Assembly (NCBI GenBank): GCA_049903315.1
Contig: JBNGBT010000004.1
Coordinates: 1 to 64,000 of the forward strand
Direction of reading: 5' to 3'
Source of the DNA: Candidatus Cloacimonadota bacterium
GTDB lineage: Bacteria; Cloacimonadota; Cloacimonadia; JGIOTU-2
Length of the DNA stretch: 64,000 nt
Shown here: positions 14,836 to 45,362 of the stretch, in pieces
Layout of the letters: the number at the start of each line of letters is the position of its first letter
Numbering within the stretch: the stretch's first letter is position 1
Position numbers and translations under genes: made by a program
Notes under the pieces: model-generated
What the model was told of the DNA's origin: nothing
The model's database searches: none
What the model saw: only the letters and a program-made list of their open reading frames with translations

Positions 14836-14939
14836 TTTATTTATTTGATAGGTCAGATGGTGATTGATTAATACATATTTATAAATTTTTGAAAGCAAAA
14901 ATTGGAAAAAATATAGAAGAAAAATGGGATGAAACAAAA

Positions 14940-16238: not shown

Positions 16239-16240
16239 TT

Positions 16241-21298: not shown

Positions 21299-22369
21299 AT
21301 GAATAAAAAAATTTTGATCACAGGAGCTGCAGGTTTTATTGGAAGTAATTTTGTATTTAAACTCTTGAACGAAACAGATAATTTAATTATCATTTACGAT
21401 ATATTAACTTATGCTGGAGATATAACCAAGTTTGAGAAAGTGCGAGATAACATAAATTATAACTTCATAAAAGGAGATATATGCGATAGAAGGAAAGTTG
21501 GGAAAGTAATAAATAATATCCAACCTGATGCAATAGTAAATTTTGCTGCAGAAACTCACGTAGACCGTTCAATAAAAGGTCCATCTAGTTTTATTCAAAC
21601 CAATATACTGGGCACTTCAATATTATTGGAAGAAGCTATAAAATATTATTATAAACTTAGTCAATCACAAAAATCTAACTTTAAATTTTTACATGTTTCA
21701 ACTGACGAAGTTTATGGCGAACTTGGTAAGACAGGGCTATTTACTGAAGAAACACCTTATAATCCTAGCTCTCCATATTCTGCATCAAAAGCTTCTTCTG
21801 ACCATCTAGTAAAAGCGTGGTATAGAACTTTTGGATTGCCTGTAGTTATTACGAATTGTTCAAATAATTATGGACCTTATCAATTCCCTGAGAAATTAAT
21901 ACCTTTAATGATAATTAATGCTATTTCCAATAAACCACTTCCAATTTATGGAAAAGGGGAAAATGTACGGGATTGGCTATATGTAGAAGACCACTGCGAA
22001 GCAATTAATACAGTTTTAGAGAAAGGAAAAATTGGAGAAACATACAATATTGGTGGTACCTGCGAAAAAACAAATCTTGAAATAGTAGAAATTATCTGTG
22101 ACTTGCTAGATGAGATTCAACCAAATCCTAATAAGAATTCTTACAGAGAACAGATTACTTTTGTAGAAGATAGGCCTGGACATGATTTTCGCTATGCAAT
22201 GGATATAACAAAAATAAATAAAGATCTTGGGTGGAAGCCAAAAGAATCTTTCCAATCTGGTATTAGAAAAACAATTGAATGGTATTTGGAGAATCAAAGC
22301 TGGGTAGAAAAAATTGTGTCGGGTGAATACCAAAATTGGATTTCAAAAAATTATGGAGAAAGAAAATGA
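21299..22369 (+). CDS. rfbB: dTDP-glucose 4,6-dehydratase
   Basis: [59 protein letters not shown]. Confidence 0.97.
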
Positions 22370-23244
22370 AGGGTATAATACTTGCTGGAGGTGCTGGAAC
22401 GCGCCTTCATCCTCTTACAATAACGATTTCAAAACAATTACTACCAGTGTATGATAAACCAATGATATATTATCCAATATCTATTTTGATGCTTGCTGGC
22501 ATTCGTGAAATATTGATAATTTCTACTCAAAAGGATTTACCAAATTTTAAAAAATTGCTTGGATGCGGCAAACAATTGGGGCTTAGTTTCGAATATGCGG
22601 AACAACTTGAACCTAAAGGACTTGCAGAAGCTTTTATAATTGGAAAGGATTTTATCGGAGATGAGAATGTATGCCTAATACTTGGGGATAATATATTCTA
22701 TGGACAGGGAATAAAAGAAAAGGTACAAAATGCAGCCCGACTCAATGAAGGTGGAGTAATTTTTGCTTATTATGTCCATGATCCTGAACGGTATGGAGTT
22801 GCTGAATTTGATAGAGATTTTAATGTGATTTCTCTGGAGGAAAAACCCCAAAATCCAAAATCCAATTACGCCGTAACTGGACTTTATTTTTACGATAATG
22901 ACGTAATTAATATTGCAACTAAAATTAAACCTTCTGATAGAGGTGAGTTGGAAATAACAGACGTGAACAAAGAATATTTGATACGAAAAAAACTTAAGCT
23001 GGAAATATTAGGGCGTGGTTATGCCTGGCTTGACACAGGCACCCATGAGTCTCTTTTGGATGCTTCCAATTATATTGAGGTAGTCGAAAAAAGACAGGGA
23101 CTTAAAATTGCATGCTTGGAAGAAATTGCTTACAGAATGAAATTCATTGGAAAAGATAAACTGATTGAAGCTGGAAAAAAATATAATAAGAACCAATATG
23201 GTAAGTACTTATTAGAAATAGCTAAAAGGACAAAACTTGGCTAG
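22366..23244 (+). CDS. rfbA: Glucose-1-phosphate thymidylyltransferase
   Basis: [44 protein letters not shown]. Confidence 0.97.
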
Positions 23245-24709
23245 ATCGCTTAGAGAAAAGGCTATATCCGGAATATCTTGGAGCTTTATTAATAGTGTTG
23301 TTGTATATGGTATCCAATTTGTTGTTGGAATAATTTTAGCCCGAATATTATTGCCTAAAGAATTTGGACTTATAGGCATGATTATGATCTTCATTGCAAT
23401 CTCTCGATCATTTGTTGATAGCGGCTTTACCCAAGCAATCATTAGAAAAAATGATGCTAAACAAGTTGATTATTGCACAATATTTTATTTTAATGTCGTT
23501 GTTAGTCTCATATTTTATTCTATACTTTTTTGTTTATCCATAAGTATTAGTAGATTTTTTAATGAACCTAAATTAGTGCCAATATTAAAATATCTTGGCT
23601 TAATTTTGATTTTTGATTCTCTGGCAATCATCCAACGTGCCCGATTGACAAAAAAAATTAATTTCAAACTACAGACAAAAGTGTCCGTAATATCATCTAT
23701 AAGTTCTGGGATTATTGGGATTGTCATGGCCTATAATGGCTTTGGTGTTTGGAGTTTAGTTATTAAAATGCTTACACGTCATGCAATCGCTACAACACTT
23801 TTATGGATATGGAATAGATGGAAACCAACATTAGAATTTAGCATAAAATCGTTTAAAGAAATGTTCTCATTTGGTTCAAAATTACTTCTCAGTGGTTTAA
23901 TTAACACAACTTATAGAAATATTTATAAATTAATCATAGGTAAATTTTTCTCAGCGGCAGATTTAGGATTCTATTCTAGAGCTGAACAATTTAGAAATCT
24001 ACCATCCCAAAATTTAACAACTGTCATTCAACAGGTCTCATATCCGGTATTATCATCCATTCAAAATGATATACCTAAACTAAAGGATGCATATAGACGG
24101 TTAATAAAAAGCACTATGTTTATAACTTTCACTTTAATGCTAGTCCTAGCTGCTATATCTAGACCATTAGTTCTTACATTGATTGGAGAAAAGTGGTTGC
24201 CGTCTGTTATCTATCTGCAGTTACTTTGTATTGCGGGAATGTTATATCCGCTACATGCTATAAATCTTAACATGCTAAAAGTGCAAGGTAGATCTGATTT
24301 GTTTCTTAAATTGGAAATAATAAAAAAAATATTAGCAATACCAGCTATAGTTATAGGAATTTATCTGGGTATTATAGCTATGATTATCGCAATGACACTG
24401 AATTCTTTTGTGGCGTATTTTATAAATTCATATTACTCAGGCAAAAATATAGGATATTCCAGTTTTGACCAAATTAAAGATATATTACCATCATTTATAT
24501 TTGCTCTTTTCATAGGTGGTATATTATTTATTTCAGGCCATTATCTGCAAGCATCAAATATAAGTATACTATTGATACAAATTACTATTGCCTCTCTTTT
24601 ATTTATTGGAGGGAGTGAATTGCTTAATTTTAAGGATTACTTGTATTTGAAAAAAATCGTAATTGATAAATTCTCGACGAAACTAAATAGAAAGAAACAA
24701 GACAAATAA
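23237..24709 (+). CDS. wzx: Wzx (WzxC-like) polysaccharide flippase
   Basis: [41 protein letters not shown]; polytopic membrane protein. Confidence 0.92.
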
Positions 24710-26145
24710 TGCGGAAAATAAATCACGAAGATGTTCGTCTTTTATTTCTACGAAGTTCCTGTACTTCAGAAGGAATATTTTTTAATTGTGATACTGTCAT
24801 TGATTGGTTAAAAGAGCAAAATAAAAAAATATATGTGAGTATTAATAAGGTATCCTTTAAACTTCTAAAAAATTGGAAAGTGTCAAATTCAAGTATTCGG
24901 CACGAAAGCGGAAAGTTTTTTTCAGTACAAGGCGTTAGGGTAAAAACAGATTTTAATCATATAGAAACATGGGATCAACCAATTATATTTCAGCCGGAGG
25001 TAGGTTATCTTGGCATAATAACAAAAGAATTTAAAGGTGTACTGTATTTTCTTTTGCAAGCCAAAATAGAACCAGGCAATGTAAATTATGTGCAGCTTTC
25101 ACCAACTTTACAAGCAACAAGAAGTAATTATTCTCGAGTTCACAAAGGAAAAAAACCACAATATCTGGAATACTTTCAAAATGCAAAACCTCATCAGGTT
25201 CTTCTTGATCAGCTACAGTCTGAACAAGGCTCCAGGTTTTTTAGAAAGCGCAATAGAAACATCATAATAAAAATTAATGATGAATTACCTATTTTGGACA
25301 ATTTTGTTTGGTTAACTCTTGGTCAAATAAAGAATCTTATACGGAAAGAAAATTTGATTAACATGGATACTCGCTCAGTGCTTGCAGGAATTCCATTTGG
25401 TAATTTTGAGCCTGATGTAATGAATTTTTTAAGCTTCTGCAATTTATCTTATAAACACAAAAATAATATAATTCAAAAAGCATTTTTGGAATCTGCTTTG
25501 ATAAAACATGACAGCGTACACACTATCCAAAATATTGTTAGCTTTATCACACATTTAAAAAGTGTTTATAACTTAGAAGTTCGGAAGATACCACTGAACA
25601 AAATGAGAAAATGGATATTTGGCAAGAATGAAATCCATCATGAAGATGATAATAGCTTCAAGGTTAATGCGGTGAATGTTGAGATCGGGAACCGAGAAGT
25701 AGTTGAATGGAATCAACCCATGATAGAACCCCAAGCTCAGGAACTATCAGCTTTTGTTTGCAAAAATATTAATGGATTGTTACACTTAGCGGTCCAGGCA
25801 AAAATGGAATGTGGTAATTTGGACTTTATTGAATTCGCTCCTACTGTTCAATGTATAATGAACAATTGTCATTTAATTGAAGCCGATTCTATACCTTTTT
25901 TAAATTACGTATTAAATGCAAAACCTGAGCAAGTTTTCTATGATGTTATACAATCGGAAGAGGGTGGACGTTTCTTCAGGGAACAGAACAGAAATATGAT
26001 CGTGATTGCTGGTGATGATTTTCCTGTTGAATTACCAGAAAAGTATATCTGGATGACGTTGAATCAATTAATATTTTTTTTAAAATTCAACAACTACGTA
26101 AATATACAAGCCCGTAGTATAATTTCAGCAATAAATTTTGTATGA
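24709..26145 (+). CDS. NDP-hexose 2,3-dehydratase (EvaA/OleV family)
   Basis: Two repeated domains: HESGKFFSV.G, WDQPII.QPEVG.LG, QAKIEPGN, QLSPTLQATRSNY, QSEQGSRF..KRNRN, NMDTRSVL; second copy QSEEGGRF, NIQARS. Confidence 0.92.
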   Translation: MRKINHEDVRLLFLRSSCTSEGIFFNCDTVIDWLKEQNKKIYVSINKVSFKLLKNWKVSNSSIRHESGKFFSVQGVRVKTDFNHIETWDQPIIFQPEVGYLGIITKEFKGVLYFLLQAKIEPGNVNYVQLSPTLQATRSNYSRVHKGKKPQYLEYFQNAKPHQVLLDQLQSEQGSRFFRKRNRNIIIKINDELPILDNFVWLTLGQIKNLIRKENLINMDTRSVLAGIPFGNFEPDVMNFLSFCNLSYKHKNNIIQKAFLESALIKHDSVHTIQNIVSFITHLKSVYNLEVRKIPLNKMRKWIFGKNEIHHEDDNSFKVNAVNVEIGNREVVEWNQPMIEPQAQELSAFVCKNINGLLHLAVQAKMECGNLDFIEFAPTVQCIMNNCHLIEADSIPFLNYVLNAKPEQVFYDVIQSEEGGRFFREQNRNMIVIAGDDFPVELPEKYIWMTLNQLIFFLKFNNYVNIQARSIISAINFV

Positions 26146-26152
26146 AATAGTT

Positions 26153-27118
26153 ATGGAAAAAATAAATTTCGGTGTAATAGGTTGTGGGTATATTTCTAAA
26201 AAATCTGTTATTCCAGCAATAAACGACGGTCTATATTCCAGCTTGATAGCAGTTTGTGATATCGATGTGGAAAGAATGAAGATTGTTTCCCAAAAATACC
26301 ATACAGATAACGAAGAGGATTATAGTAGATTGTTAAATAGAAAAGATATTGATGCTGTGTATATTGCGACACCAATAGGGAAACATACAGAAATATGTAT
26401 TGAAGCTGCTCAAAAAGGTAAACACATTCTTTGCGAGAAATCATTAACCTCAAGTTTGGATGAAACAGAAAAAGTAATTGAAGCATGCGAAGACAATCAT
26501 GTTGCATTACTTGAAGGATTTATGTACCAATATCACACGCAACATGCGATAGTGAGAGATTTAATTCGAGATGATAGGATTGGACAACCAGTACATTTCC
26601 ATGCAAGATTTGGTTTCCCCCCATTGGACAGAAAAAATTTCAGATATAGTAAGGAATTGGGTGGAGGTTCACTTTTAGATGCAGGTGCTTACACCATACA
26701 TGCAGCGAGGAATATCTTTAATAAAGAACCCATAAAAGTTAATGCAGTACTTCACAATGAGGGTAGAGAAATAGATGTTTATGGGAGTGCATTGTTGGAT
26801 TTTGGAAAAGAAACAGCAAGTCTTGTCTTTGGCTTTAATAATTTTTATCAGAATACTTATTCGGTTTGGGGTACTAGAGGATTAATTACCTTAAAAAGAG
26901 CATTTTCTATACCTTCTGATTTGAAACCTACATTGATTCTTGAACAACAAGATAATTATAAAGAAATTGTATTACCTGAATGTAATCATTTTGATAAAGA
27001 AATTGAAATTTTCTGCAAAAATATATCAAATGAAAATTTGATTCAAAAATGGAGAATTGACATTTTGAATCAATCTAAAGTAATAAGCTTGATAAGGAGA
27101 GGATCTGAAAGTAATTAA
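26153..27118 (+). CDS. Gfo/Idh/MocA oxidoreductase, probable NDP-hexose 3-ketoreductase (OleW-like)
   Basis: HILCEKSL, EGFMYQYHTQH, FGFPP, RYSKELGGGSLLDAGAY; follows the 2,3-dehydratase. Confidence 0.8.
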   Translation: MEKINFGVIGCGYISKKSVIPAINDGLYSSLIAVCDIDVERMKIVSQKYHTDNEEDYSRLLNRKDIDAVYIATPIGKHTEICIEAAQKGKHILCEKSLTSSLDETEKVIEACEDNHVALLEGFMYQYHTQHAIVRDLIRDDRIGQPVHFHARFGFPPLDRKNFRYSKELGGGSLLDAGAYTIHAARNIFNKEPIKVNAVLHNEGREIDVYGSALLDFGKETASLVFGFNNFYQNTYSVWGTRGLITLKRAFSIPSDLKPTLILEQQDNYKEIVLPECNHFDKEIEIFCKNISNENLIQKWRIDILNQSKVISLIRRGSESN

Positions 27119-28196
27119 ACCAATTTTTGTAACTAAACCTTCACTTGCTCCCCTAGAAGAATATACAGAATTTCTTAAAGGTGTATGGAAACGTGGCATT
27201 TTAACACATAATGGACCACTGGTTCAACAACTGGAAAAAGAGCTATGCATAAAATTAAATATTCGCAATTTCTTGGCTGTAACTAATGGTACTATTGCTT
27301 TACAAATGGCTATTAAGGCACTCGATTTGAAGGGTGAAATAATAACTACACCTTTTACGTGGATTGCAACTGTTAGCGCTATTAAATGGGAGAGTTGTAA
27401 ACCTGTGTTTTGTGATATTGATCCTGATACTCTTAATATAAATCCCGAAGGAATAGAACCATTAATAACAGAAGATACTGTTGCAATTATGCCTGTTCAC
27501 GTTTTTGGAAATCCATGTGATGTTATTGAGATTGAGAAAATTGCGGAAAAGTATAATCTGAAAATTATTTATGATGCTGCTCATGCAGCTGGTTCAACAT
27601 TAGATGGGAAGAGTCTTTTAGAATATGGTGATATAAGTGCAACCAGCCTTCACGCTACAAAACTATTCAATACAGCAGAAGGAGGAGGATGTGTTACGAC
27701 CGATTCCGAATTGTTTAAAAAATTAAAGAGAATACGGTTCTTTGGGCACAATAATGTTAAGGATATTATAGAAGATGGATTTAATGGTAAGATGACAGAG
27801 GTTCATGCTGCTTTAGGTTTAGCAAATTTGAAGTATTATAATGAGATATTAACCGATAGAAGAAATAAATATTTTTATTATAAAGATAGACTTTCCAAGA
27901 TTGAAGGCTTAAAATTCCAAGAACTTGCATTTGGAGAAAGTAATTTTTCTTATTTCCCTGTGATATTTCCTTCAGAGGAAATTACTTTAGAAGTTGTTAA
28001 ACGATTGAGTAAAGAAAATATATATCCAAGGAGATATTTCTATCCTTCTATAAATACATATACTAAAATTATACACTATCAAGAATGTCCAATTTCTGAA
28101 GATATCTCAAAGAGAATATTATGCCTTCCATTATATTGGGAATTGGATTTTGGATATATCAAATTTATAATCGATAATATTAAAAAGAGTTTTTAA
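27105..28196 (+). CDS. DegT/DnrJ aminotransferase, VioA-like sugar 4-aminotransferase; non-ATG start
   Basis: Frame is open from 27096: KPIFVTKPSLAPLEEY...LTHNGPLVQQLE...NGTIAL, YDAAHA, SLHATKLFNTAEGG, NGKMTE. No in-frame ATG/GTG/TTG before 27273; CTG at 27105 follows AGGAG. Confidence 0.85.
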   Translation: MKVIKPIFVTKPSLAPLEEYTEFLKGVWKRGILTHNGPLVQQLEKELCIKLNIRNFLAVTNGTIALQMAIKALDLKGEIITTPFTWIATVSAIKWESCKPVFCDIDPDTLNINPEGIEPLITEDTVAIMPVHVFGNPCDVIEIEKIAEKYNLKIIYDAAHAAGSTLDGKSLLEYGDISATSLHATKLFNTAEGGGCVTTDSELFKKLKRIRFFGHNNVKDIIEDGFNGKMTEVHAALGLANLKYYNEILTDRRNKYFYYKDRLSKIEGLKFQELAFGESNFSYFPVIFPSEEITLEVVKRLSKENIYPRRYFYPSINTYTKIIHYQECPISEDISKRILCLPLYWELDFGYIKFIIDNIKKSF

Positions 28197-29533
28197 TGAA
28201 AACGGATTGGACAAAATATAGTTGGAAAAAGTATACTGTGAAGCAACAGCCTGAATGGAAAGATAAAGATTTATATAAAAATATAATTTCTCAATTAGAA
28301 AAATTACCATCATTAGTATTTTCGGGAGAAACAAGAAATCTAAAAACCGAGTTAAAGGATGTTCATAAAGGAACTAAATTCATTTTACAAGCTGGCAATT
28401 GTGCAGAATTATTTTCTGACTGTCATGGTCCATCAATACATAATTTTTTGAGAATAATGTTACAAATGTCAATGGTCATAGAATATTGTTCGCAGAAAAA
28501 TGTAATCCAGATTGGACGAATTGCCGGTCAATATGCTAAGCCTCGATCTTCAAATTATGAAATTATCGAAGGGAAGCAATTACCAAGTTATCGAGGAGAT
28601 ATTGTAAATGAATCTGAACCAATAGAAGAAGCTAGAAAACCTAATCCCCAGAATCTTTTAGAAGCGTATTTTAGATCCGCAGCAACATTAAATTTAATAA
28701 GAGCATTTATTCAAGGAGGTTATGCAGAAATTAACAACTTGTATGATTGGAAACAGCACTTTTATTCAGATGAAATTGCTCAAACATCTATTTACAAAGG
28801 AATGGAAGACAAAATAAACAAGTCTTTAAGACAAAAGAATAACAAAAAATCTATTTACAATAACAATCGTTTTTATACATCTCATGAATGCTTACTTCTC
28901 AACTATGAAGAAGCGTTTACTCGAATAGATACCACTTATGGTGGATATTATGATACAAGTGCTCATTTTTTGTGGATTGGAGATAGAACCAGAAATATAG
29001 ATGGAGCTCATATTGAGTTTGTAAGAGGAATTGGAAATCCAATTGGATTAAAAATTGGTCCAAATCATAATGTTGATGAAATAATTAAAATTGTTAAAAG
29101 ATTAAATCCAAGTAATAGTGCTGCTAAAATTGCACTAATTATTAGAATGGGCGCGAATAACATTATAGATAATTTAAAACCTTTAATTAAAATAATAAAA
29201 AACGAAAAGTTAAATGTTATTTGGATGAGTGATCCTATGCATGGAAACACTTTCAAACATAAAAACTTCAAAGTACGTAATTTTAAAGATATAGTTAAAG
29301 AGCTGACCCTATTCTTTAATTTGTGCAAAGAGTTTAATATTATTCCTGGTGGTGTTCATTTAGAAATAACTTCTGAAAAGGTGACTGAATGTATTGGTGG
29401 TATAGATGGTTTAGATTTTTCTCATCTTAATATAAATTATGAAACTAAAGTAGATCCACGTTTGAATGCTGCACAAGCCCTAGAATTAGCTTTTATTATC
29501 GGAAACCTTTTAACCAAATTTAAGGAGCAATAA
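28196..29533 (+). CDS. Class II DAHP synthase
   Basis: QAGNCAE, GRIAGQYAKPRS, SYRGDIVN, FYTSHE, LWIGDRTR, NPIGLKIGP, DPMHGNT, GGVHLE, DPRLN. Confidence 0.95.
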   Translation: MKTDWTKYSWKKYTVKQQPEWKDKDLYKNIISQLEKLPSLVFSGETRNLKTELKDVHKGTKFILQAGNCAELFSDCHGPSIHNFLRIMLQMSMVIEYCSQKNVIQIGRIAGQYAKPRSSNYEIIEGKQLPSYRGDIVNESEPIEEARKPNPQNLLEAYFRSAATLNLIRAFIQGGYAEINNLYDWKQHFYSDEIAQTSIYKGMEDKINKSLRQKNNKKSIYNNNRFYTSHECLLLNYEEAFTRIDTTYGGYYDTSAHFLWIGDRTRNIDGAHIEFVRGIGNPIGLKIGPNHNVDEIIKIVKRLNPSNSAAKIALIIRMGANNIIDNLKPLIKIIKNEKLNVIWMSDPMHGNTFKHKNFKVRNFKDIVKELTLFFNLCKEFNIIPGGVHLEITSEKVTECIGGIDGLDFSHLNINYETKVDPRLNAAQALELAFIIGNLLTKFKEQ

Positions 29534-30660
29534 TGGATAAAATAAAAGTTGGATTTATTGGTGGGGGAGTAAATTCAGCCGTTGGGTCAGCACATTATAC
29601 TGCAATAAATATTGATAATAATTTCGAACTTATTACCGGTTTTTTTAGTAGAAATCAAACAACGAACTCAGAAACAGCTAAAAAATTTAAAATCAATAAT
29701 AATAAATTATATTTCTCAATTGATGAATTGATATTGAAAGAAAAAAATAATCTTGATGCGATTATAATTTTGACTCCAACAAACCAACATTCAGGTCAAG
29801 TGATACAGTGTCTTCAAAATAGAATACCAGTTATATGTGAAAAAGCATTAGCTGTTTCAAGCAAAGAAATACAAGAAATACAAGAAGTAATGAATAAAAA
29901 TAACGGATTTTTATCTGTCATTTATAATTATTTAGGATATCCGATTATTAGAGAATTGAAATCAATGATCAAAAATGGAGATCTTGGAGAAATGATACAT
30001 ATTCAAGTTGAGATGCCTCAGGAAAGTTTTATAAAGAACGATAAATTTCAAAAACCAATTATTCCACAGAAGTGGAGAATGGAAGATAAATCGGTTTCTA
30101 CTATTTCTTTAGATTTAGGAGTTCACTTGCATATGCTTAATAAATATTTAATTGAAAAAACTCCTTTAAAGGTCATAGCAAATAGCGAATCAATTGGAAA
30201 TTTTAATTCTATTGTAGATAATGTTAATTGCCTAATTCTATATAATGATAATATTTTATGTAATATGTGGTTTAGTAAGATTGCTTCTGGAAGTAGAAAT
30301 GGCATGAGAATAAGGGTATTTGGGAGTAAAGGCTCAGCTGAATGGATACAGGAAAATCCTGAAATTCTTTATAGAGCTGATACACAAGGAAAAAGATGGA
30401 TAGTAGATAGATCTCATCCTGATGTTATAATTTGTAATCAAAAAAAATATAAACGATTTAATGCAGGCCATCCAATCGGTTTTATTGAAGCATTTGCTAA
30501 TTATTACAATGACGTAGCTGAAGCTTTGATTAACTATAAGAAAACAGGGAATTATGAATCAACTGAAGTTTTTGGAATTAATGAATCTGCTGAAGGAATA
30601 AGATTATTTGAAGCTGTTGATAAGTCCAGTAGAGAAAAGCGATGGATTGATATAAATTAG
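29533..30660 (+). CDS. Gfo/Idh/MocA family oxidoreductase
   Basis: GFIGGG..SAVG..H, VICEKAL, YNY.GYP, DLGVH, GHP.GFIEAFANYY. Confidence 0.88.
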   Translation: MDKIKVGFIGGGVNSAVGSAHYTAINIDNNFELITGFFSRNQTTNSETAKKFKINNNKLYFSIDELILKEKNNLDAIIILTPTNQHSGQVIQCLQNRIPVICEKALAVSSKEIQEIQEVMNKNNGFLSVIYNYLGYPIIRELKSMIKNGDLGEMIHIQVEMPQESFIKNDKFQKPIIPQKWRMEDKSVSTISLDLGVHLHMLNKYLIEKTPLKVIANSESIGNFNSIVDNVNCLILYNDNILCNMWFSKIASGSRNGMRIRVFGSKGSAEWIQENPEILYRADTQGKRWIVDRSHPDVIICNQKKYKRFNAGHPIGFIEAFANYYNDVAEALINYKKTGNYESTEVFGINESAEGIRLFEAVDKSSREKRWIDIN

Positions 30661-30669
30661 GATAATAAA

Positions 30670-31818
30670 GTGAAAAATATACTTTTATTAGATACAAGCT
30701 TTTCAGCAAAAACAATCTATGATTATTTAGAAAAATCTGGTAATGTTTATGTGATGGGAAATAGACCAGATGATTTCCTGGCAAAGATTTCTCCAAACTA
30801 TATAAACCAAAATTACGCTGATATTGAGTCTGTTCTTAAAGTATTAGATAATTTTAAAATTAATTTTTTGGTTCCTGGGGGAAATGATTTTTCTTATAAG
30901 ATTTGTTCAAAAATTAATAGTATAATCCCCTTTTATAATACTGATTCAGAAGAAGTAAATGAAATAATCAATAATAAAGAAAAATTCAGAAAGTTCTCTA
31001 TCAATAATAATCTTAATGTTCCAAAACTGGTAGATGAAGATAATATTGCTAATCATTTACCGGTAATTATAAAATCGGTTGATGCTTATAGTGGGCATGG
31101 GATGACAATAATTGACAACGAGAATATCGATTTATTACAAGAAAGTATAGAAAATGCAAAATCATTTTCAAAAAGCGGAAATTATATTATAGAAGAATTT
31201 GTTGAAGGCCAATTATATAGTCATTCAGCTTTTATTTCAAATGGTAAAATTATTGAAGATTTTATTGTAAAAGAATACTGTAGTACTAACCAATATGTAG
31301 TTGATATCAGCTATGTTGATGATGATTTTACTTCTCAGATGAGAGAAGAAATCAGAAAAGATATTACAACAATTGCTAAAGAGTTAACATTACATGATGG
31401 ATTAATTCATACTCAATTTATAGCAAATGGTGATAATTTTTGGATAATTGAAATTACACGACGCTGTCCTGGAGATTTATATAGTCAACTCATAGAATTT
31501 AGTACAGGATTTCCTTACGCCGAATATTATACCAAACCGTTTCTAAATGTCAAAAACGAAATATTTACTCAGCCCAAAGAGATTAATCATATATTGAGGC
31601 ATACAATATCCTCAAAGGAAGAAAATGTTTTCCATTATTTCGAATTGAATCAACCTTTAATAATTCGAAAATTATTACCTATGGTTCTACCAGGAGATAT
31701 TGTTAAAGAAAGCCCTTTTGGAAGAATTGGATTGTTATTTGTGAAATTTGAAAACAAAAGTGATTTATTGAAATCGATTCCAAAGTTTACATCAAAACAG
31801 ATCTATTCTGTGAATTAA
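30670..31818 (+). CDS. ATP-grasp ligase
   Basis: LVPGGND, NNKEKFRKF, PVIIK.VDAYSGHG, IEEFVEG, HTQFI, IEITRRCPGDLY. Confidence 0.85.
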   Translation: MKNILLLDTSFSAKTIYDYLEKSGNVYVMGNRPDDFLAKISPNYINQNYADIESVLKVLDNFKINFLVPGGNDFSYKICSKINSIIPFYNTDSEEVNEIINNKEKFRKFSINNNLNVPKLVDEDNIANHLPVIIKSVDAYSGHGMTIIDNENIDLLQESIENAKSFSKSGNYIIEEFVEGQLYSHSAFISNGKIIEDFIVKEYCSTNQYVVDISYVDDDFTSQMREEIRKDITTIAKELTLHDGLIHTQFIANGDNFWIIEITRRCPGDLYSQLIEFSTGFPYAEYYTKPFLNVKNEIFTQPKEINHILRHTISSKEENVFHYFELNQPLIIRKLLPMVLPGDIVKESPFGRIGLLFVKFENKSDLLKSIPKFTSKQIYSVN

Positions 31819-31824
31819 ATTTTT

Positions 31825-32880
31825 ATGATAATCTTTAATGATAAACGGGATGCATATTTTAAACTAAAACAATATCTTAACGAAAGTAAGTTCAGTAAAG
31901 TATTTATTCTTTGTGATAATAATACAAAAGAAAATTGCTTACCTTTGTTCATTGTTAAGATAGGTAAATCAGGATTAAAACAGAGTATTATTGAGATAAA
32001 AAATGGCGAAAAAAATAAAAATCTCAAAACTTGTGAACTTATTTGGACTAACCTATTAGAGCAAAATTGCGACAGACACTCGTTAATGATAAATCTTGGA
32101 GGAGGGGTAATAACTGATATAGGTGGGTTTGCTGCTTCTACTTTTAAAAGAGGAATTAAGTATATTAATATTCCTACTACATTATTAGCTATGGCTGATG
32201 CAAGTTCGGGCGGTAAAACGGGGATAGATTATCTTGGATATAAGAACATGATTGGCGTCTTTTCACAACCACAGTTTACTATAATTGATACAGATTATTT
32301 GAAAACACTTGAAGAAATTCATTTAAAAAGTGGTTTTGCTGAAATGTTGAAACATGGATTAATTAGAAATGTCAAACATTGGAATGAACTTATTAGTGCA
32401 GGTTATAAGAATATGACTTATAAATTGATAAAAGATTCAGTTAATATAAAATCCGAAATTGTTGAAAGTGATCCTTTCGAATCGGGACAAAGAAAATTAT
32501 TAAATTTTGGACATACTGTAGGTCATGCTATTGAGTCATTATCCCTTAAAAATGACGATAATCATTTGACTCATGGTGAAGCAGTCGCTATTGGAATGAT
32601 TGTAGAAAGTTACATTTCATATTCATTAGGTATGATTGATGAAGAAGCATTACAGCAAATATCTAAAAATATTTTTAAATGTTACTCCTTATATGAAATT
32701 CCGAAATATGGACTTGAAGAAATTCTCGAATATTTGAAAAATGATAAAAAAAGCATAAAAGATACATATCTTTTTGTTTTACTTAAAAATATCGGCGAAG
32801 CTGTTTACAATAACAGAGTTGAAGAAGAAATAATAATTAAGGCTTTGGGTTATTACTCTACTACTAAAAAATATGTATAA
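31825..32880 (+). CDS. aroB: 3-dehydroquinate synthase
   Basis: GGGVITDIGGFAA, PTTLLAMADASSGGKTG, KNMIG, LLNFGHTVGHAIE, HGEAVAIGM, DKK. Confidence 0.93.
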   Translation: MIIFNDKRDAYFKLKQYLNESKFSKVFILCDNNTKENCLPLFIVKIGKSGLKQSIIEIKNGEKNKNLKTCELIWTNLLEQNCDRHSLMINLGGGVITDIGGFAASTFKRGIKYINIPTTLLAMADASSGGKTGIDYLGYKNMIGVFSQPQFTIIDTDYLKTLEEIHLKSGFAEMLKHGLIRNVKHWNELISAGYKNMTYKLIKDSVNIKSEIVESDPFESGQRKLLNFGHTVGHAIESLSLKNDDNHLTHGEAVAIGMIVESYISYSLGMIDEEALQQISKNIFKCYSLYEIPKYGLEEILEYLKNDKKSIKDTYLFVLLKNIGEAVYNNRVEEEIIIKALGYYSTTKKYV

Positions 32881-34066
32881 TAATATAACTTTAGTAAATG
32901 CACATTGGAACAACCGCGGAGATGAGGCCGCTCATTTAGCATTCATTGAGAAATTACAGCAAATATTTCCTGAAAGTAAAATCACAATCCTTATAAAGGA
33001 TGGAAAATCTGTTGAACAATTTCCTGAATTAAGAAATGTTACTTCTTATGCAGCCAAGTTCAAAGTAAAAATCTGGGAAATCTGGGTTTCTGTCTTAACA
33101 AGAGGTTTTTTTACTTTTAATAAAGAGTTAAAAAAAACTGTTCTGGCTCTTAAGAATTCTGATCTTATTATTTACCCTCCGGGTGGTTCGGTTATTAATG
33201 ATAGATTCTTCTGGTGGAAACAAATGGAATATCTCACACCATTTTTATGTGCTAAAATTTATAAAATACCCATGTTCGTTGCGGCACCGTCGATTGGACC
33301 TTTCCCTAAAAAAAATACTATTAGAAAATGGCTTTTAAAAACTCCCAAAGTAATATGCGTTAGAGAAGATATATCTCGAAAATATTTAGCAGATATTGGG
33401 ATAAAAGATAATGTCTATGTAGCCATGGACTTAGCTTTTTTAAATACCATCGATGAAAAAATGAATGAGGAAAAATTACAAAAACATTCAGAACTTAATA
33501 ATTTTTTAATTACTAATAAAAAAGTTGTGGGAATAACAATATCAGATTTTACTTGGCATGTAAAATATGGAAAAGATGAAAAATTAATGCAAAGAATTGA
33601 GGAATCTTTTCATCAAGTTATTGAAAATTTGGAGAAGAAAGGTTATTCCATACTATTTATTCCACAATTGTTTGGTAATCAAAACGATACTGAATATTTA
33701 TCTCGATTCAAGACCCAAAATTCATTTTTCATAGATGAGAATTATAATACATTCTTTCAACAATACATTATTTCGAAATTATATGCTGTGATCGGTTTAA
33801 GATATCATTCAAATATCTTTGCTGCTAAGATGGGAACGCCTTTTGTCTCTGTAGTTTATGAAGAAAAAATGGAAGGTTTCCTGAAATTGGCTGAACTTAC
33901 TGAATACTCATTACCACTATCTGAAATATCTGCATCAAAGATATTAGAGAAGTTCTTATTGCTTGAGATTAATTATCAGCAGATTAAATTACACCTCAAG
34001 GTAAAAAATAAAAATTGGAAGAAAATAGCTGCAAAAACAATTGAGTTATTCAGGAAATATAAATAA
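32873..34066 (+). CDS. Polysaccharide pyruvyl transferase family protein (WcaK-like)
   Basis: NRGDEA, PGGS, SIGPF, VREDIS, GLRYHSNIFA, YEEK. Confidence 0.88.
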   Translation: MYNNITLVNAHWNNRGDEAAHLAFIEKLQQIFPESKITILIKDGKSVEQFPELRNVTSYAAKFKVKIWEIWVSVLTRGFFTFNKELKKTVLALKNSDLIIYPPGGSVINDRFFWWKQMEYLTPFLCAKIYKIPMFVAAPSIGPFPKKNTIRKWLLKTPKVICVREDISRKYLADIGIKDNVYVAMDLAFLNTIDEKMNEEKLQKHSELNNFLITNKKVVGITISDFTWHVKYGKDEKLMQRIEESFHQVIENLEKKGYSILFIPQLFGNQNDTEYLSRFKTQNSFFIDENYNTFFQQYIISKLYAVIGLRYHSNIFAAKMGTPFVSVVYEEKMEGFLKLAELTEYSLPLSEISASKILEKFLLLEINYQQIKLHLKVKNKNWKKIAAKTIELFRKYK

Positions 34067-35208
34067 TGGCAAAAGGTAAAGTTAATATATTAGATGAAAG
34101 TGCTTTAAGGGATTGTACAGGATGTGGCGGATGTAGTTTAATATGTCCATCCAATGCGATCAACATGAACTTTGATATATATGGTTTTTTCCGTCCATCT
34201 ATTGAGATGGATCTCTGTACTATGTGTGGTGCATGTACCGAAGTCTGTTATAAGTTTAATGAGTTTGATAACATTAATCCTTATAAAAATTCTGAAGTTA
34301 TCGCAGTAACAAATAATTATATTGATGATATGAATTTAGTAACGACAGCAGGTATCGCTACCAGATTGGCTGAATATTTTTATGAAAAAGATTATAATAT
34401 ATGTGGTGTAAAGTATGATTATAATAGTGATACTACAAAACATGATGTAGCAAATTCTTTGGATGATATTTTAGAATATAGAGGTTCGAAGTATATACCA
34501 AGTAATACCAAAATAGCGTTTGAAAAAATCCTGAAAGAAAACAAAAAATCTATTGTTTTTGGTTTACCCTGTCAAATATTTGGACTAAGAAAAGTTATAG
34601 AAAAAAAGAAAATAGCTGATAATTTTATTTTAATAGACTTTTTCTGTGCAGGCATACTTTCTAAGAAATTATGGGATAAATACTTAGATTATTTAAGAAG
34701 AAAATTTTCTATTTCAAAAATAAAACAAATCAATTTTAAAGATAAAACAGAAGGTTGGAGAAAATCATCTTTATATGTAATTGATGAATCTGGAAATAAT
34801 TATAAGCAAAATAGATTTAATGATATTTTTTACGCATTTTTATTGAGAAGAGTACCATATCAAGAAGCATGTTATGATAGTTGTGCATTTCGAAGACATG
34901 TTGTTTCTTCAGATATTCGGCTTGGTGATTTTTGGGGACCTAAATATAAAGCTTGGGATGATGGAGTAGAACTTATGACACTTATGAATGATAAAGGTAG
35001 ATATGCATGGAATGAAATAAAAGATTATTTTTCTTATCAAATATGTAAAGAAAAAGACCTATATGAATCGCAAGATTCAGGAGCTATGAATATGCATGTT
35101 AAAAAACCAAAAAATTATAAACAAGTAATAACTGCTTTATCTTCAAAACAAAATATTGAAGAGATTTTCAGAGATTTGCAAATTGCAAAAATACCTATTA
35201 GTAATTAA
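34066..35208 (+). CDS. Fe-S protein with F420-reducing hydrogenase beta (FrhB/FdhB)-like domain
   Basis: CTGCGGCSLICP and CTMCGACTEVC 4Fe-4S motifs, RGSKY, GLPCQI.GL, DIRLGDFWG. Confidence 0.85.
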   Translation: MAKGKVNILDESALRDCTGCGGCSLICPSNAINMNFDIYGFFRPSIEMDLCTMCGACTEVCYKFNEFDNINPYKNSEVIAVTNNYIDDMNLVTTAGIATRLAEYFYEKDYNICGVKYDYNSDTTKHDVANSLDDILEYRGSKYIPSNTKIAFEKILKENKKSIVFGLPCQIFGLRKVIEKKKIADNFILIDFFCAGILSKKLWDKYLDYLRRKFSISKIKQINFKDKTEGWRKSSLYVIDESGNNYKQNRFNDIFYAFLLRRVPYQEACYDSCAFRRHVVSSDIRLGDFWGPKYKAWDDGVELMTLMNDKGRYAWNEIKDYFSYQICKEKDLYESQDSGAMNMHVKKPKNYKQVITALSSKQNIEEIFRDLQIAKIPISN

Positions 35209-35354
35209 TTTAATCAGATGGGTTGAATACTAAGAAAATTTAAAAATTGTTAATGATAAAAGAAGAACTTATGGGTATAGATTAATTCGAAAAACGTAAA
35301 ATAATATTATTTTTGTTAGTTCAGTATTCTGTTCCAAATAAATTAAGGATTTTA

Positions 35355-36476
35355 ATGGAATATAAAACAAGTATTAACTCAATTCTCGAAAAAGCTATGA
35401 GTATTAACTCAATTCTTGAAAAAGCAAAAGAGTATCATAAATATAATTGGTTGGAAGAAGCAGAAAAATACTATAGAGCTATATTAGTTAAGATACCTGA
35501 TCATCCAGAGGCAAATCACAATTTGGGTGATATAGCAATGAGAGTAAACAAACCGGAAGTAGCATTAATTTTTTTTGAAAAAGCTTTAAGAATAAAACCA
35601 GAATGCAAACAGTTTCAAAATTCTTTAGAAAATGTTAAGGAGATGTTAAAATCAAGTTCAATTATTACTCAAAATATAGAGCATTCTGATATCTTTGAAT
35701 TAATGGGAAGTGATTTTATTTTTGAAAGAAAAATAAAATCACTTGAAAATAAGTTGTTCTTACTCAACGAAAAAATAAATAATATACATGAAGCATTGAT
35801 CTCACTAGATGTATTTGAGATGAAAAATATTGATGATGTATCTTCTAGAATGTTACCTATTGAAACTATTAACAAAAACTCAATGAAAACATTAATTGCA
35901 TTTGGGGGTATGGCTTCAGGATTGTCAATGCCGCCGAAAGAATTTTTTAAAAGTTTTATTCATAAAAATATAAATATAATCTTTGTAAAAGATTTTAAGC
36001 AATGTTGGTATCAAAAAGGTTTATTAGGTAAGACTAGTGATATTGAGAGTTCAATTGAGTATCTAAAAAATATTATCCCTAAAACTACTGAAAAACTAGT
36101 AACACTTGGTGCATCAGCTGGAGGGTATGCAGCAATAAGATTTGGTATAGCATTAAATGCTGATCGCATAATAGCATTTTCTCCACAAACATTAATTGAT
36201 GAAGAAACTGCAAGGGTGTTTTCTAAAAGTTGCTTAAGGAATATGATATTTGATAATATTGATTTAGATTTAAAAAAAATACTTGATAAGTATAATCCAG
36301 AAGTTAAAGTAGAAGTTTATTATGCAGTATATAATAATAGAGATAAGACAAATGTAAACAACATAAAAGATTATGTAAAAGAGTTTTCATATGAAACGGA
36401 TACACATTTATTAGCATCATATTTGAAAGAAAAAGGGTTGCTTAAAAAAATTGTAGATTCTATTTGTGAGAATTAA
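35355..36476 (+). CDS. TPR domain plus alpha/beta-hydrolase-like protein
   Basis: TPR (AEKYYRAIL..IPDHPEANHNLG); C-terminal GASAGGYAA nucleophile elbow and AFSPQT. Confidence 0.65.
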   Translation: MEYKTSINSILEKAMSINSILEKAKEYHKYNWLEEAEKYYRAILVKIPDHPEANHNLGDIAMRVNKPEVALIFFEKALRIKPECKQFQNSLENVKEMLKSSSIITQNIEHSDIFELMGSDFIFERKIKSLENKLFLLNEKINNIHEALISLDVFEMKNIDDVSSRMLPIETINKNSMKTLIAFGGMASGLSMPPKEFFKSFIHKNINIIFVKDFKQCWYQKGLLGKTSDIESSIEYLKNIIPKTTEKLVTLGASAGGYAAIRFGIALNADRIIAFSPQTLIDEETARVFSKSCLRNMIFDNIDLDLKKILDKYNPEVKVEVYYAVYNNRDKTNVNNIKDYVKEFSYETDTHLLASYLKEKGLLKKIVDSICEN

Positions 36477-36539
36477 AGACACAGAATTAAAAAATAGAAG
36501 GACTAAAGAAATCACATATAATTAATAAAAAGAAAATAA

Positions 36540-37379
36540 ATGCAATACATACGTTTAAATAATAATTTGGAAATGCCAATCATAGGAATCGGAACTTTTC
36601 CTCTTAAAGGTGTATCTTTAATAAAAACTGTATTGAATGCTTATAATTGTGGCTATATGAGTTTTGATACAAGTGCTGCCTACTTTAATGAAGAATGCTT
36701 AGGTGTTGCAATGAAACGTATTATTTCTTATGGTGGATCCTTGCCATTCATTACAACAAAGCTAAGTAATACGAGTCAAAGAGAAAACAATGTTAGAGAA
36801 GGTTTCTTTCATAGTTTGAAGAAATTAGGATTAAAAAAAATAGATTTATATTTAATGCATTGGCCTTATCCTGAAAAGTATTTAGAATCCTGGAAACAGA
36901 TGGAAGCCTTATATAGGGAAGGTTTAGTCGGCGCAATTGGAGTGTGTAATTTTCATCAGCATCATTTAGAACAGTTATTAGAAGTAGCAGAAATTGTCCC
37001 AGCAGTTAATCAAATAGAATTACATCCCCTTTTGTCTCAGAAACCGTTAAGAAATTATTGTAAAGATAAACGAATACATGTACAAGCATACTCTCCTCTT
37101 GCTAGAATGGATCCAAAGCTTGTTAAACATCCGGTGTTAATTGAATTATCAAAGAAATATAAAAAAACTGTCCCCCAAGTAATATTGAGATGGAATATTC
37201 AAGAAGGAATTATGGTAATACCAAAATCGGGCAATAAGAATAGAATAGAAGAAAATATTGAAATTTTTGATTTTGAATTAACAAAAAATGAGATGTTAGA
37301 AATAGATAATATTAATGAAGATTATAGAGTAAGATTCAATCCCGATACAGTAGACTATGTTAATATATTGAAAGCCTAG
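36540..37379 (+). CDS. Aldo/keto reductase
   Basis: FDTSAAYFNE, DLYLMHWP, AIGVCNF, VNQIELHP, QAYSPL, VIPKS. Confidence 0.92.
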   Translation: MQYIRLNNNLEMPIIGIGTFPLKGVSLIKTVLNAYNCGYMSFDTSAAYFNEECLGVAMKRIISYGGSLPFITTKLSNTSQRENNVREGFFHSLKKLGLKKIDLYLMHWPYPEKYLESWKQMEALYREGLVGAIGVCNFHQHHLEQLLEVAEIVPAVNQIELHPLLSQKPLRNYCKDKRIHVQAYSPLARMDPKLVKHPVLIELSKKYKKTVPQVILRWNIQEGIMVIPKSGNKNRIEENIEIFDFELTKNEMLEIDNINEDYRVRFNPDTVDYVNILKA

Positions 37380-37667: not shown

Positions 37668-38714
37668 ATGGAAAAGCTTAGAACCGAAGCAGAAATAATA
37701 AAGAACTGGCAGGGAGATATTACAAAACCCCTGGTAAGTATCGGTTGTATTACATACAACCATGAGAAATATATTCGAGATGCTTTAGAAGGTTTTTTAA
37801 TACAAAAAACTGATTTTCCATTTCAAATATGCATCCTTGATGACGCTTCAACTGATGATAATGTTAAAATAATACAGGAATATGCTGAAAAATATCCAAG
37901 GATATTTAAATGTTTTTTTTTGAAAGAAAATACCTGGGGTAAACCTTATCGCATAGAAAGAGCAAAACCGTATTTAGATGCTCGTGATCAAGCAAAATAT
38001 ATTGCTTATTGTGAAGGAGATGATTATTGGATTGATCCATTAAAATTACAGAAACAGATTGATTATCTAGAAGAAAATCCGACGTATGGATTAGTACATA
38101 CAGATGTGAATATAAAATATGAAAAAAACAACAAAATAATTAGTAATTATAACAAAGAAACAAATATAAAACTTTTAGGAAACAATGCATTTGAGGAAAT
38201 TCTTTCCTTTGAATATCCCATACAAACTTGCACTACCTGTCTTCGTACTGAATTGATTCAAAGATATCACTATTCTGATAAAAAAAGATCACAATTTCAA
38301 GTGGGAGATACTCCAATTTGGATGGATTTAGCAATGCATTCAAACGTTAGATACATTGATGAATCAATGGCAGTTCGCAGGATAATAGAAGAATCAGCGA
38401 GCCAAACCAAAAATATAACTAAGAAAATAAATTTCATTAAATCTGTTTTTTCTGCAAGAATGCATTATATTGATAAATATGATTGTTCAACACAATTAAA
38501 AAAAATAGTTCAAATAAAGTATAATAAGAAAATGTTAAAATACGGCTATCATTATACTGATAAGGCAGTTTCTAATAATGCTTATAAAGAACTTAAAGAC
38601 TTAGGGTATATTTTTACATTTGATGACTACATGTTTTTAATTGGTTCAAAAAACCACATATTAAAACTTTTCGTAAAAATTTATTTTAAAATTAATAAGA
38701 TATTAAAGAAATGA
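37668..38714 (+). CDS. Glycosyltransferase family 2
   Basis: VSIGCITYNHEKYIRDALEGFL, DDASTD, CEGDDYWIDPLKLQKQ. Confidence 0.93.
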   Translation: MEKLRTEAEIIKNWQGDITKPLVSIGCITYNHEKYIRDALEGFLIQKTDFPFQICILDDASTDDNVKIIQEYAEKYPRIFKCFFLKENTWGKPYRIERAKPYLDARDQAKYIAYCEGDDYWIDPLKLQKQIDYLEENPTYGLVHTDVNIKYEKNNKIISNYNKETNIKLLGNNAFEEILSFEYPIQTCTTCLRTELIQRYHYSDKKRSQFQVGDTPIWMDLAMHSNVRYIDESMAVRRIIEESASQTKNITKKINFIKSVFSARMHYIDKYDCSTQLKKIVQIKYNKKMLKYGYHYTDKAVSNNAYKELKDLGYIFTFDDYMFLIGSKNHILKLFVKIYFKINKILKK

Positions 38715-43976: not shown

Positions 43977-44590
43977 AGATAGTCATTATTGATTATGGAA
44001 TGGGTAATAATAAATCAATACAGAATCAACTAAATAGGATTGGTGTTAATTCAATAATTTCAAACAAATCATCAGATCTAAAAGATGCTGATAAGCTTAT
44101 ATTACCTGGTGTAGGTCATTTTGATAATGGGATAGATCACCTGAATAAACATCATTTGATAGAGACTCTTAATAAAAGAGTGTTAATAGATAATATACCA
44201 ATCTTAGGAATTTGCCTCGGAATGCAACTTTTTGCTAAAGATAGTGAAGAAGGAATGTCTAAAGGATTAGGTTGGATTGATGCCCATGTTGTGCGATTCA
44301 GTAATTCGAAGTTAGAGAAACAATTTCGAATCCCTCATATAGGTTGGAATAATCTAAATATTCAAAGGCAAAGTAACCTTCTGGAAGGTATAGACGAACA
44401 ATCATTTTTTTATTTTGTACATTCTTATTATTTGTATAGTCATGATTCAAAAATAATTCTTGCAACAACTGAGTATTCCGAAAAATTTACATCAGTTGTA
44501 CAAAAAAAGAATATTTTTGGAACTCAATTCCATCCAGAAAAGAGTCATGATGCTGGAATCAGAATATTGAAAAATTTCTGTAGGATATAG
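43973..44590 (+). CDS. HisH-like glutamine amidotransferase subunit (WbuY-type)
   Basis: DYGMGN, LPGVG, GICLGMQ, PHIGWN, YFVHSY, QFHPEKS. Confidence 0.9.
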   Translation: MKIVIIDYGMGNNKSIQNQLNRIGVNSIISNKSSDLKDADKLILPGVGHFDNGIDHLNKHHLIETLNKRVLIDNIPILGICLGMQLFAKDSEEGMSKGLGWIDAHVVRFSNSKLEKQFRIPHIGWNNLNIQRQSNLLEGIDEQSFFYFVHSYYLYSHDSKIILATTEYSEKFTSVVQKKNIFGTQFHPEKSHDAGIRILKNFCRI

Positions 44591-44592
44591 AT

Positions 44593-45351: not shown

Positions 45352-45362
45352 AGGAGATTACT

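Follow-up and report, generated by a model that had tools for sequence, protein, structure and literature searches.

A stretch of 64,000 nt from a Candidatus Cloacimonadota bacterium (contig JBNGBT010000004.1 of GCA_049903315.1, positions 1-64,000; hereafter the window) carries a surface-glycan locus in which four genes, at 28196-32880, encode a class II 3-deoxy-D-arabino-heptulosonate 7-phosphate (DAHP) synthase, a Gfo/Idh/MocA-family oxidoreductase (Gfo2), an ATP-grasp ligase, and a 3-dehydroquinate (DHQ) synthase, AroB. All four open reading frames (ORFs) lie on the + strand within an unbroken + strand run of glycan genes. An earlier reading of the window, made from its letters and ORFs (the sequence-only reading), had described the genes as tightly packed and coupled by TAATG, and the ORFs and overlaps are all present: TAATG overlaps join the aminotransferase to the DAHP synthase and the DAHP synthase to the oxidoreductase, gaps of 9 nt (oxidoreductase/ATP-grasp) and 6 nt (ATP-grasp/aroB) follow, and aroB overlaps a pyruvyltransferase-family gene by 8 nt. 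The GC content of the block is 28-30%, compared with 37-40% in the ten largest contigs of the host. The arrangement is not due to chance, as the gene order from the 2,3-dehydratase to an FrhB-like gene recurs unchanged in another locus (L023) and its core is found in 160 loci. Together with the comparative evidence below, this makes it fairly likely that the locus produces an N-quinoyl or epi-quinoyl amino sugar for a surface glycan. The relevant genes are as follows.

21299..22369, + strand: RmlB-type dTDP-glucose 4,6-dehydratase (Pfam GDP_Man_Dehyd/Epimerase; named by sequence and adjacency to rmlA)
22336..23244, + strand: RmlA-type glucose-1-phosphate thymidylyltransferase (PF00483)
23237..24709, + strand: Wzx flippase (PF13440)
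24709..26145, + strand: NDP-hexose 2,3-dehydratase (PF03559, 494 bits; just 2 of the 160 loci have it close to the cassette)
26138..27118, + strand: dTDP-sugar 3-ketoreductase, Gfo1 (best structure 3RBV, "Sugar 3-ketoreductase", at 185 bits, with 122 for the next distinct protein)
27105..28196, + strand: VioA/DesI-type dTDP-4-keto-6-deoxysugar 4-aminotransferase (2PO3, 183 bits; TIGR04427 below cut-off)
28196..29533, + strand: class II DAHP synthase (PF01474, 574 bits; cassette-only clade; the genome's only DAHP synthase)
29533..30660, + strand: Gfo/Idh/MocA oxidoreductase, Gfo2, proposed DHQ 3-ketoreductase (orthologue in 106 of 160 loci)
30670..31818, + strand: ATP-grasp ligase with GTG start, proposed N-acylating enzyme (PF13535)
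31825..32880, + strand: 3-dehydroquinate synthase AroB, the genome's only copy (TIGR01357, 331 bits; cut-off 305)
32873..34066, + strand: polysaccharide pyruvyltransferase-family protein (PF04230; orthologues of 58-68% identity in 6 of 160 loci)
37668..38714, + strand: family 2 glycosyltransferase (GT2), candidate transferase for the N-acylated sugar (PF00535; related GT2 in 27-31 of 160 loci)

The two synthases and the host genome

The match of the DAHP synthase to PF01474 spans positions 1-437, its score to TIGR01358 is 522 bits (under the cut-off of 615), and the protein aligns end to end with 5UXM and 2B7O/2YPO. Compared with these structures it keeps the Cys, His, Glu, and Asp ligands and the KPRS, RMG, and DPMHGN motifs, which we take to be the metal- and substrate-binding residues, and the same motifs are kept across 27 cassette sequences. 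The AroB protein scores 201 bits to the DHQ synthase 3CLH versus 112 to the cyclase 4P53, 110 to 2D2X (the 2-deoxy-scyllo-inosose synthase comparison), and 66 to 5TPR, and lies outside the clade that the AroB-like proteins of other sugar clusters form. That separate clade (L008, L096-L098, L188, L189, and L191), which includes two genomes of the host's family, is accompanied by short-chain dehydrogenase/reductase partners and, in some loci, by thiamine diphosphate (TPP) enzymes.

In the host genome, which is 96.4% complete, the window copies of DAHP synthase and AroB are the only ones, and chorismate synthase, both DHQ dehydratases, shikimate dehydrogenase, and type II DHQ synthase were not found in searches whose controls were positive. 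The sequence-only reading had reported no further aro genes in the window; this holds, and extends to the whole host genome, where aroD, aroQ, aroE, aroK, aroA, and aroC are not found anywhere, nor did the separate housekeeping set that it had suggested looking for come to light. Matches to the 5-enolpyruvylshikimate-3-phosphate (EPSP) synthase, class I DAHP synthase, and kinase families proved to be MurA, KdsA, and a topology-modulation-like protein, none of them shikimate-pathway genes. The DAHP and DHQ synthases of this host lead no further than DHQ, and the organism appears, from its gene content, unable to make chorismate. A similar picture emerges from its kin: class II DAHP synthase is found in 0 of 60 sampled genomes, aroC in 0 of 8 genomes of the host's family, and an AroB-like gene in 2 of 20, both within other sugar clusters. 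The ATP-grasp gene occurs in 1 of 150 sampled kin, a same-class genome that is the source of L023, so that the cassette has been acquired patchily.

A ligase cassette in surface-glycan loci

The ATP-grasp ligase has 1268 relatives at E <= 0.001. A single-sequence query of genomes gave no matches and an alignment query recovered the loci, of which the 80 best of 98 from genomes and the 80 best of 244 from metagenomes make up the 160 studied here, a set that is biased to close relatives and includes near-copies, falling into 126 groups at 90% identity and 77 at 70%. Many contigs are short, and 86 of the loci have 4 kb on both sides. The conserved unit, or cassette, consists of an aminotransferase, the ATP-grasp ligase, and an oxidoreductase, often with an FkbM methyltransferase; among the 86 fully flanked loci, a DegT aminotransferase is found in 84, an oxidoreductase in all 86, and an FkbM-type methyltransferase, which the window lacks, in 56. 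The cassette is widespread, occurring in many bacterial phyla in loci for O-antigens, capsules, and the glycans of flagellin and pilin, in the company of wzx, ABC exporters, rmlAB, flagellin genes with tetratricopeptide repeat (TPR)/GT41 transferases, or pilin. Cultured, non-pathogenic carriers include Arhodomonas aquaeolei DSM 8974, Luteimonas vadosa JCM 18392, Haloferula rosea KCTC 22201, and strains of Limnobacter and Sphingomonas. An Enterobacter cassette gene gave no match to E. coli genomes by blastn, so that no known E. coli serotype structure can be used for comparison. A Brachyspira plasmid ATP-grasp protein (25% identity) with no adjoining oxidoreductase or aro gene was assigned to another family.

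Some loci carry further enzymes. In L003, L088, L123, L126, and L140 the cassette is accompanied by a class III aminotransferase and a divergent FkbM protein, and this aminotransferase could aminate a ring ketone to give an amino-quinoyl variant. A desaturase-family protein occurs in 19 loci (L011, L033, L036, L040, L043, and 14 others), usually with a Methyltransf_24 protein; these desaturase-bearing forms are from Caulobacter, Sphingomonas, and a Rhizobium plasmid, with L194 listed alongside. Fusions of GT2 and radical S-adenosylmethionine (SAM) domains are present in 8 loci and B12 radical SAM proteins in 6.

The DAHP synthase and AroB are, on the comparative sequence evidence, optional supply genes of this cassette. 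Class II DAHP synthase is carried by 28 of the 160 loci, which make up 15 of the 77 groups, DAHP synthase of either class by 29, and embedded AroB by 6 (L014, L023, L089, L105, L114, and L121). Five further AroB-like matches were excluded, four belonging to a neighbouring sugar cluster (L008, L096-L098) and one looking housekeeping (L045). Relatives of aroQ, aroE, QuiC1, aroA, aroC, and AroD-I are absent from all 160 cassette loci; a shikimate-kinase-family match in L101 reads as what we presume to be gluconate kinase. Because only the first two shikimate steps have been recruited, the intermediate supplied would be DHQ. In a quick tree with 9 housekeeping rows, which cannot separate one origin from two, the cassette DAHP synthases form two cassette-only clades (SH-aLRT 100 and 99) apart from these rows and covering six phyla; three rows first labelled "other" are continuations of cassettes on other contigs. 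In a rough reverse check, 22 of the 46 closest DAHP synthase homologues (on contigs >=4 kb) lie on a contig equal in length to one with an ATP-grasp match, and so apparently on the same contig. A single clade of the six full-length cassette AroBs is rejected (p-AU 0.003), implying that AroB entered the cassette at least twice. In a Vibrio locus (L074) the order is rmlB, rmlA, vioA, a class I DAHP synthase, the oxidoreductase, the ATP-grasp gene, and two GT2 genes. This DAHP synthase (TIGR00034) is of the ordinary AroF/G/H type, non-homologous to class II, and occupies the same slot; its genome has four other matches to the family (three further copies and one of KdsA size), and no other cassette locus carries a class I enzyme.

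That the DAHP synthase is carried only where the host lacks one was considered and rejected, as the cassette genes are extra copies in many hosts, which suggests dedicated supply rather than gap filling as the general rule. For example, Smithella-type hosts (G065, G066, and G068) have a class I DAHP synthase, aroB, and aroC elsewhere in the genome. A match to the DHQ synthase family is present in 49 of the 50 cassette-bearing genomes searched, and chorismate synthase is found in 12 of 15 checked. The sequence-only reading had treated sole-copy status combined with no conserved link to glycan loci as damaging; the first part applies to this host, but the link does exist. Of the four families whose co-localisation it had proposed to search for, DAHP synthase and AroB accompany ATP-grasp in a minority of the glycan loci, and the 2,3-dehydratase lies close by in 2 of the 160.

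The ATP-grasp model (pLDDT 93) gives TM scores of 0.78-0.81 to 4DIM and the L-amino acid ligase 3VOT and, over the whole chain, 0.72-0.81 to 3VOT, BacD (3VMM), RizA (4WD3), PurT, and 4DIM. Residues K103, K135, E175, Q249, E261, and R265 are invariant in 70 aligned homologues of 120 listed, and Q249/E261/R265 fall, in the alignment, on the motifs that bind metal in carbamoyl phosphate synthetase. The protein thus has, in the model, the three-domain fold with what we assume to be the ATP-binding lysines and metal ligands; no curated NCBIfam family reaches its cut-off for it. The aminotransferase upstream (~363 aa) has no ATG, GTG, or TTG start, either in the window or in L023 (near 6180). Its N terminus agrees with homologues if it begins near 27105, and the start is probably the CTG there, behind AGGAG, not the TTG at 27273. 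It scores 183 bits to 2PO3, which we take to be DesI, versus 118 to NtdA and 81 to 3-amino-5-hydroxybenzoate (AHBA) synthase; its best NCBIfam is TIGR04427, with a score under the DesI equivalog cut-off. Cassette aminotransferases are DesI-type in 11 of 13 scanned, the other two matching no family at threshold, and a vioA-type gene directly follows rmlB-rmlA in L016, L074, L081, L108, and L115. In the Pfam scan no CoA- or folate-dependent N-acyltransferase adjoins the window aminotransferase. Acyltransferases of the usual types are nearly absent among cassette neighbours, of which 106 of 194 shared clusters were scanned together with 50 of the 65 singletons close by, a hexapeptide, acetyltransferase-like protein appearing in one small neighbour cluster and in none of the 50 singletons, which leaves the ATP-grasp ligase as the likely N-acylating enzyme.

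The sugar itself is probably a 4-amino-2,4,6-trideoxyhexose in the window, as indicated by the 2,3-dehydratase, 3-ketoreductase, and C4 aminotransferase. This pair of PF03559 2,3-dehydratase and 3-ketoreductase, of natural-product type, was seen in surface-glycan loci at 24709-28196 of the window, 3785-7262 of L023, and 491-3862 of L071. No FkbM methyltransferase was seen in these three loci (the L071 sequence being incomplete), which would fit a role of FkbM in 2-O-methylation elsewhere. Since Gfo1 covers the reduction at sugar C3 here, Gfo2 would be free to act on DHQ.

The oxidoreductase slot and the proposed acyl group

The oxidoreductase slot is occupied by Gfo2 in 106 of 160 loci and by a second type in 34, never by both, and all 86 fully flanked loci have exactly one of the two, which are interleaved on the ATP-grasp tree. 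Among plasmids, the nearest non-cassette relatives of the second type make up 172 records (37-51% identity). Nine hand-picked records from different genera or species were inspected, and eight adjoin aroQ, shikimate dehydrogenase, or QuiC1-type genes, the ninth having only a weakly related TIM-barrel gene nearby. The aroQ-linked Gfo proteins score 369-483 bits on the second-type profile and ~40 on the Gfo2 profile; the window protein is thus not in the aroQ-linked subfamily, and its link to it is through mutual replacement only. The kinship of the second type with quinate clusters points to the DHQ ring as substrate. Conserved orphan Gfo genes of this kind lie beside aroQ in quinate-catabolism clusters L196, L197, L199, and L203-L207, in Burkholderiales, Rhizobiales, Rhodobacterales, and Vibrionales. 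The protein atlas offers only generic Gfo names. A fungal counterpart may be QutH, whose Aspergillus niger orthologue is described in an excerpt of PMC12610400 as a quinate-induced Gfo-family protein of unknown function. The nearest structures of Gfo2 are 3V5N, 3DTY, and 7D5M, which share a clade with scyllo-inositol dehydrogenase according to an excerpt of PMC5969746.

The comparative evidence favours the route that the sequence-only reading had put forward, from DAHP through DHQ to quinate or an epimer and on to an amide with a 4-amino sugar. RmlA, RmlB, the 2,3-dehydratase, the 3-ketoreductase, and the VioA-type aminotransferase would provide a dTDP-4-amino-deoxysugar (dTDP-viosamine elsewhere), and the DAHP synthase and AroB would convert phosphoenolpyruvate (PEP) and erythrose 4-phosphate into DAHP and then DHQ, steps that are those known for these families. 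The Gfo oxidoreductase may then reduce the C3 ring ketone of DHQ to quinate or its C3 epimer, and the ATP-grasp ligase may form an acyl phosphate and then an amide with the 4-amino group of the dTDP-sugar, reduction and amide formation being possible in either order. A GT2, perhaps that at 37668-38714, would then add the N-quinoyl-type sugar to the glycan that Wzx exports. The residue is predicted to have a mass of 319.13, or 333.14 if it bears a methyl group, and its 2-deoxy form one of 303.13. On a wider scale, we lean slightly towards the view that bacteria of at least nine phyla attach a quinic-acid-type carbocycle, made from DHQ and linked as an amide, to their surface glycans, flagellins, and pilins, in methylated, desaturated, and aminated variants.

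Several points weigh against this pathway. As many as 131 of the 160 loci have no DAHP synthase and 154 have no embedded AroB, counts in which many contigs are short, and two genomes (G080 and G073) carry the cassette AroB beside a housekeeping AroB, so that its presence is not simply gap filling. Class II DAHP synthase is found in none of the 34 loci with the quinate-related oxidoreductase, L074 being the single locus that links a DAHP synthase directly with it. Non-cassette relatives of Gfo2 (29-30% identity) lie in sugar-catabolic clusters in all three cases inspected, two of which also have glucose-methanol-choline (GMC) oxidoreductases, suggesting that the window protein could act on a sugar. 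At 96.4% completeness, an aro gene of the host could have been missed. Our literature search found no reaction for quinate-cluster Gfo proteins, and we know of no characterized ATP-grasp ligase that activates a tertiary alpha-hydroxy acid.

Other explanations share part of this evidence. The roles might be reversed, an aminated DHQ ring (or a ketone made by the oxidoreductase) serving as the amine and the ATP-grasp ligase coupling this aminocyclitol to a uronate, or the oxidoreductase might act on the sugar. Campylobacter capsule amidoligases couple serinol phosphate to a uronic acid carboxylate, Gfo and DegT pairs are established to aminate sugars and cyclitols, and a WlbABC-like trio in the window (55999-58649; from Pfam, the name inferred) could supply the uronate. 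The grouping of the nearest Gfo2 structures with scyllo-inositol dehydrogenase (excerpt of PMC5969746) also agrees with this, but the aminotransferases are of the DesI/VioA type and directly follow rmlB-rmlA in the five loci named above, the near absence of acetyltransferase-like proteins among the neighbours scanned leaves the ligase as the likely enzyme of N-acylation, and DHQ as amino acceptor would give the obligatory oxidoreductase no task, all of which makes reversed roles unlikely. An open-chain acyl group derived from dephosphorylated DAHP, either reduced at C2 to give a 3-deoxy-heptonate or kept as the ulosonate, with AroB as a passenger, would agree with the more frequent recruitment of DAHP synthase (29 loci) than of AroB (6). 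However, AroB need not be carried where the genome has a DHQ synthase family match anyway, as in nearly all those searched (49 of 50), it joined the cassette at least twice, and in this host it would draw off DAHP to no end; neither a phosphatase nor a CMP-transferase is recurrent among the neighbours scanned, and the second oxidoreductase, by its descent from quinate clusters, points to the ring. We rate this a shade below the reversal of roles.

An acyl group taken unreduced or later from the pathway (dehydroquinoyl, dehydroshikimoyl, shikimoyl, or an aromatic acid made by host enzymes) is improbable to nearly the same degree as an open chain, or slightly more so. Chorismate synthase is present in most cassette genomes checked (12 of 15), and the desaturase-family protein of 19 loci or the radical SAM enzymes could alter a ring, but the host of the window has neither DHQ dehydratase nor shikimate dehydrogenase and none of the 160 loci has recruited one. 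It is very doubtful that the DAHP synthase and AroB are stray housekeeping genes on a glycan island, unrelated to the ligase. They are sole genome copies and missing from most cassette loci, yet two shikimate steps by themselves would be useless to this host, cassette DAHP synthases form clades of their own across six phyla, the Smithella-type hosts keep a class I DAHP synthase, aroB, and aroC elsewhere, and in L074 their slot is taken by a DAHP synthase that is not homologous to them. Least probable of all is an aminoshikimate route, the alternative raised by the sequence-only reading, in which Gfo and DegT proteins would make kanosamine and the synthases aminoDAHP and aminoDHQ. The four families do match RifL, RifK, RifH, and RifG at the level of fold, but the aminotransferase is much closer to 2PO3 than to NtdA or AHBA synthase (183 versus 118 and 81 bits), most loci depend on the synthases of the host, and the enzyme in L074 is of the ordinary AroF/G/H type. 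That reading had itself seen no RifJ, RifM, or RifN equivalents, and indeed equivalents of the kinase, phosphatase, and dehydratase do not recur among the scanned neighbours and no aroQ relative occurs in the 160 loci.

If a quinoyl-type amide is indeed the product, the cassette would represent a new exit from the shikimate pathway with two new enzyme activities, a cyclitol acid:nucleotide amino sugar ligase of the ATP-grasp family and a Gfo-family DHQ reductase, perhaps yielding the C3 epimer of quinate, and a candidate reaction would be at hand for the orphan Gfo proteins that quinate-catabolism clusters encode. It predicts a shikimate-derived carbocyclic substituent on bacterial glycans, with exact masses, and a quinate-amidating ligase would be a useful biocatalyst. 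The host, apparently unable to make chorismate, is also a caution that a genome with DAHP synthase and AroB does not necessarily synthesize aromatic amino acids. A literature search found no description of the cassette or of a quinoyl-type decoration, in a coverage that is poor for subscription carbohydrate journals, where a published structure is possible.

Neighbouring genes and relation to known systems

Other parts of the window glycan locus carry further gene sets. The pyruvyltransferase-family gene is accompanied by an FrhB-like Fe-S protein, an aldo-keto reductase, and a nitroreductase (32873-37379 and 40658-41533), and partners resembling this set recur in L004, L023, L084, L089, L090, and L104. 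The head of the locus (14889-18447), with a PEP mutase-cytidylyltransferase-like fusion, a TPP decarboxylase, and an Fe-alcohol dehydrogenase, is probably a phosphonate set with 2-hydroxyethylphosphonate as its presumed product. A HisH/HisF/WbuX amidotransferase trio lies at 43973-46481, in addition to the WlbABC-like trio mentioned above, both pointing to other unusual sugars in this locus, and two ORFs inside the locus (50116-50805) have transposase-like sequence, presumably IS1595-like.

As judged from sequence comparison, the system is N-acyl-viosamine-like and does not qualify as a housekeeping shikimate pathway or as one to AHBA, as the host genome lacks the former and the window aminotransferase is not of the RifK/NtdA type of the latter. 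N-acylated viosamine (Qui4N), as in anthrose or in the viosamine of Pseudomonas syringae flagellin, is made by VioA together with VioB-type acyltransferases, the acyl groups normally being delivered from CoA, ACP, or folate donors. The cassette shares with these pathways an RmlA/RmlB/VioA-type sugar, an N-acyl group, a frequent methyltransferase, and use in O-antigen and flagellin, but employs an ATP-grasp ligase and an acyl precursor that apparently comes from the shikimate pathway. The viosamine acyl groups listed in an excerpt of a marine glycan review are of formyl, acetyl, N-acetylglycyl, hydroxybutyryl, and alanyl types, and that review contains no quinic, shikim, or cyclohex term (PMC3210612). 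The ligase shares with 3VOT, 3VMM, 4WD3, PurT, and 4DIM the carbamoyl-phosphate-synthetase-like Gln/Glu ligands and the Arg that follows, but is only 15-17% identical to the ATP-grasp amide ligases and has Thr for the usual Asn, a Thr also found in 4DIM. The DAHP synthase resembles PhzC (6BMC) and RifH in being an extra copy in a specialized cluster, beside housekeeping copies in many hosts; unlike them, it would feed a glycan locus, no step beyond AroB is recruited, and at 445 aa it is nearer to 5UXM, a full-length enzyme to which it scores 409 bits, than to 6BMC, with 233 bits. The second cassette oxidoreductase, on the other hand, is 40-50% identical to the bacterial Gfo proteins found beside aroQ, shikimate dehydrogenase, and QuiC1 in quinate catabolism, although its setting is biosynthetic and the window Gfo2 belongs to another subfamily. 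Finally, PF03559 with a 3RBV-like reductase (which we take to be the KijD10-type 3-ketoreductase) and a C4 aminotransferase is the combination of natural-product pathways to 2,6-dideoxy and 4-amino-2,4,6-trideoxy sugars; unlike those pathways, it lies here in a Wzx-dependent surface-glycan locus, with the acylation cassette downstream.

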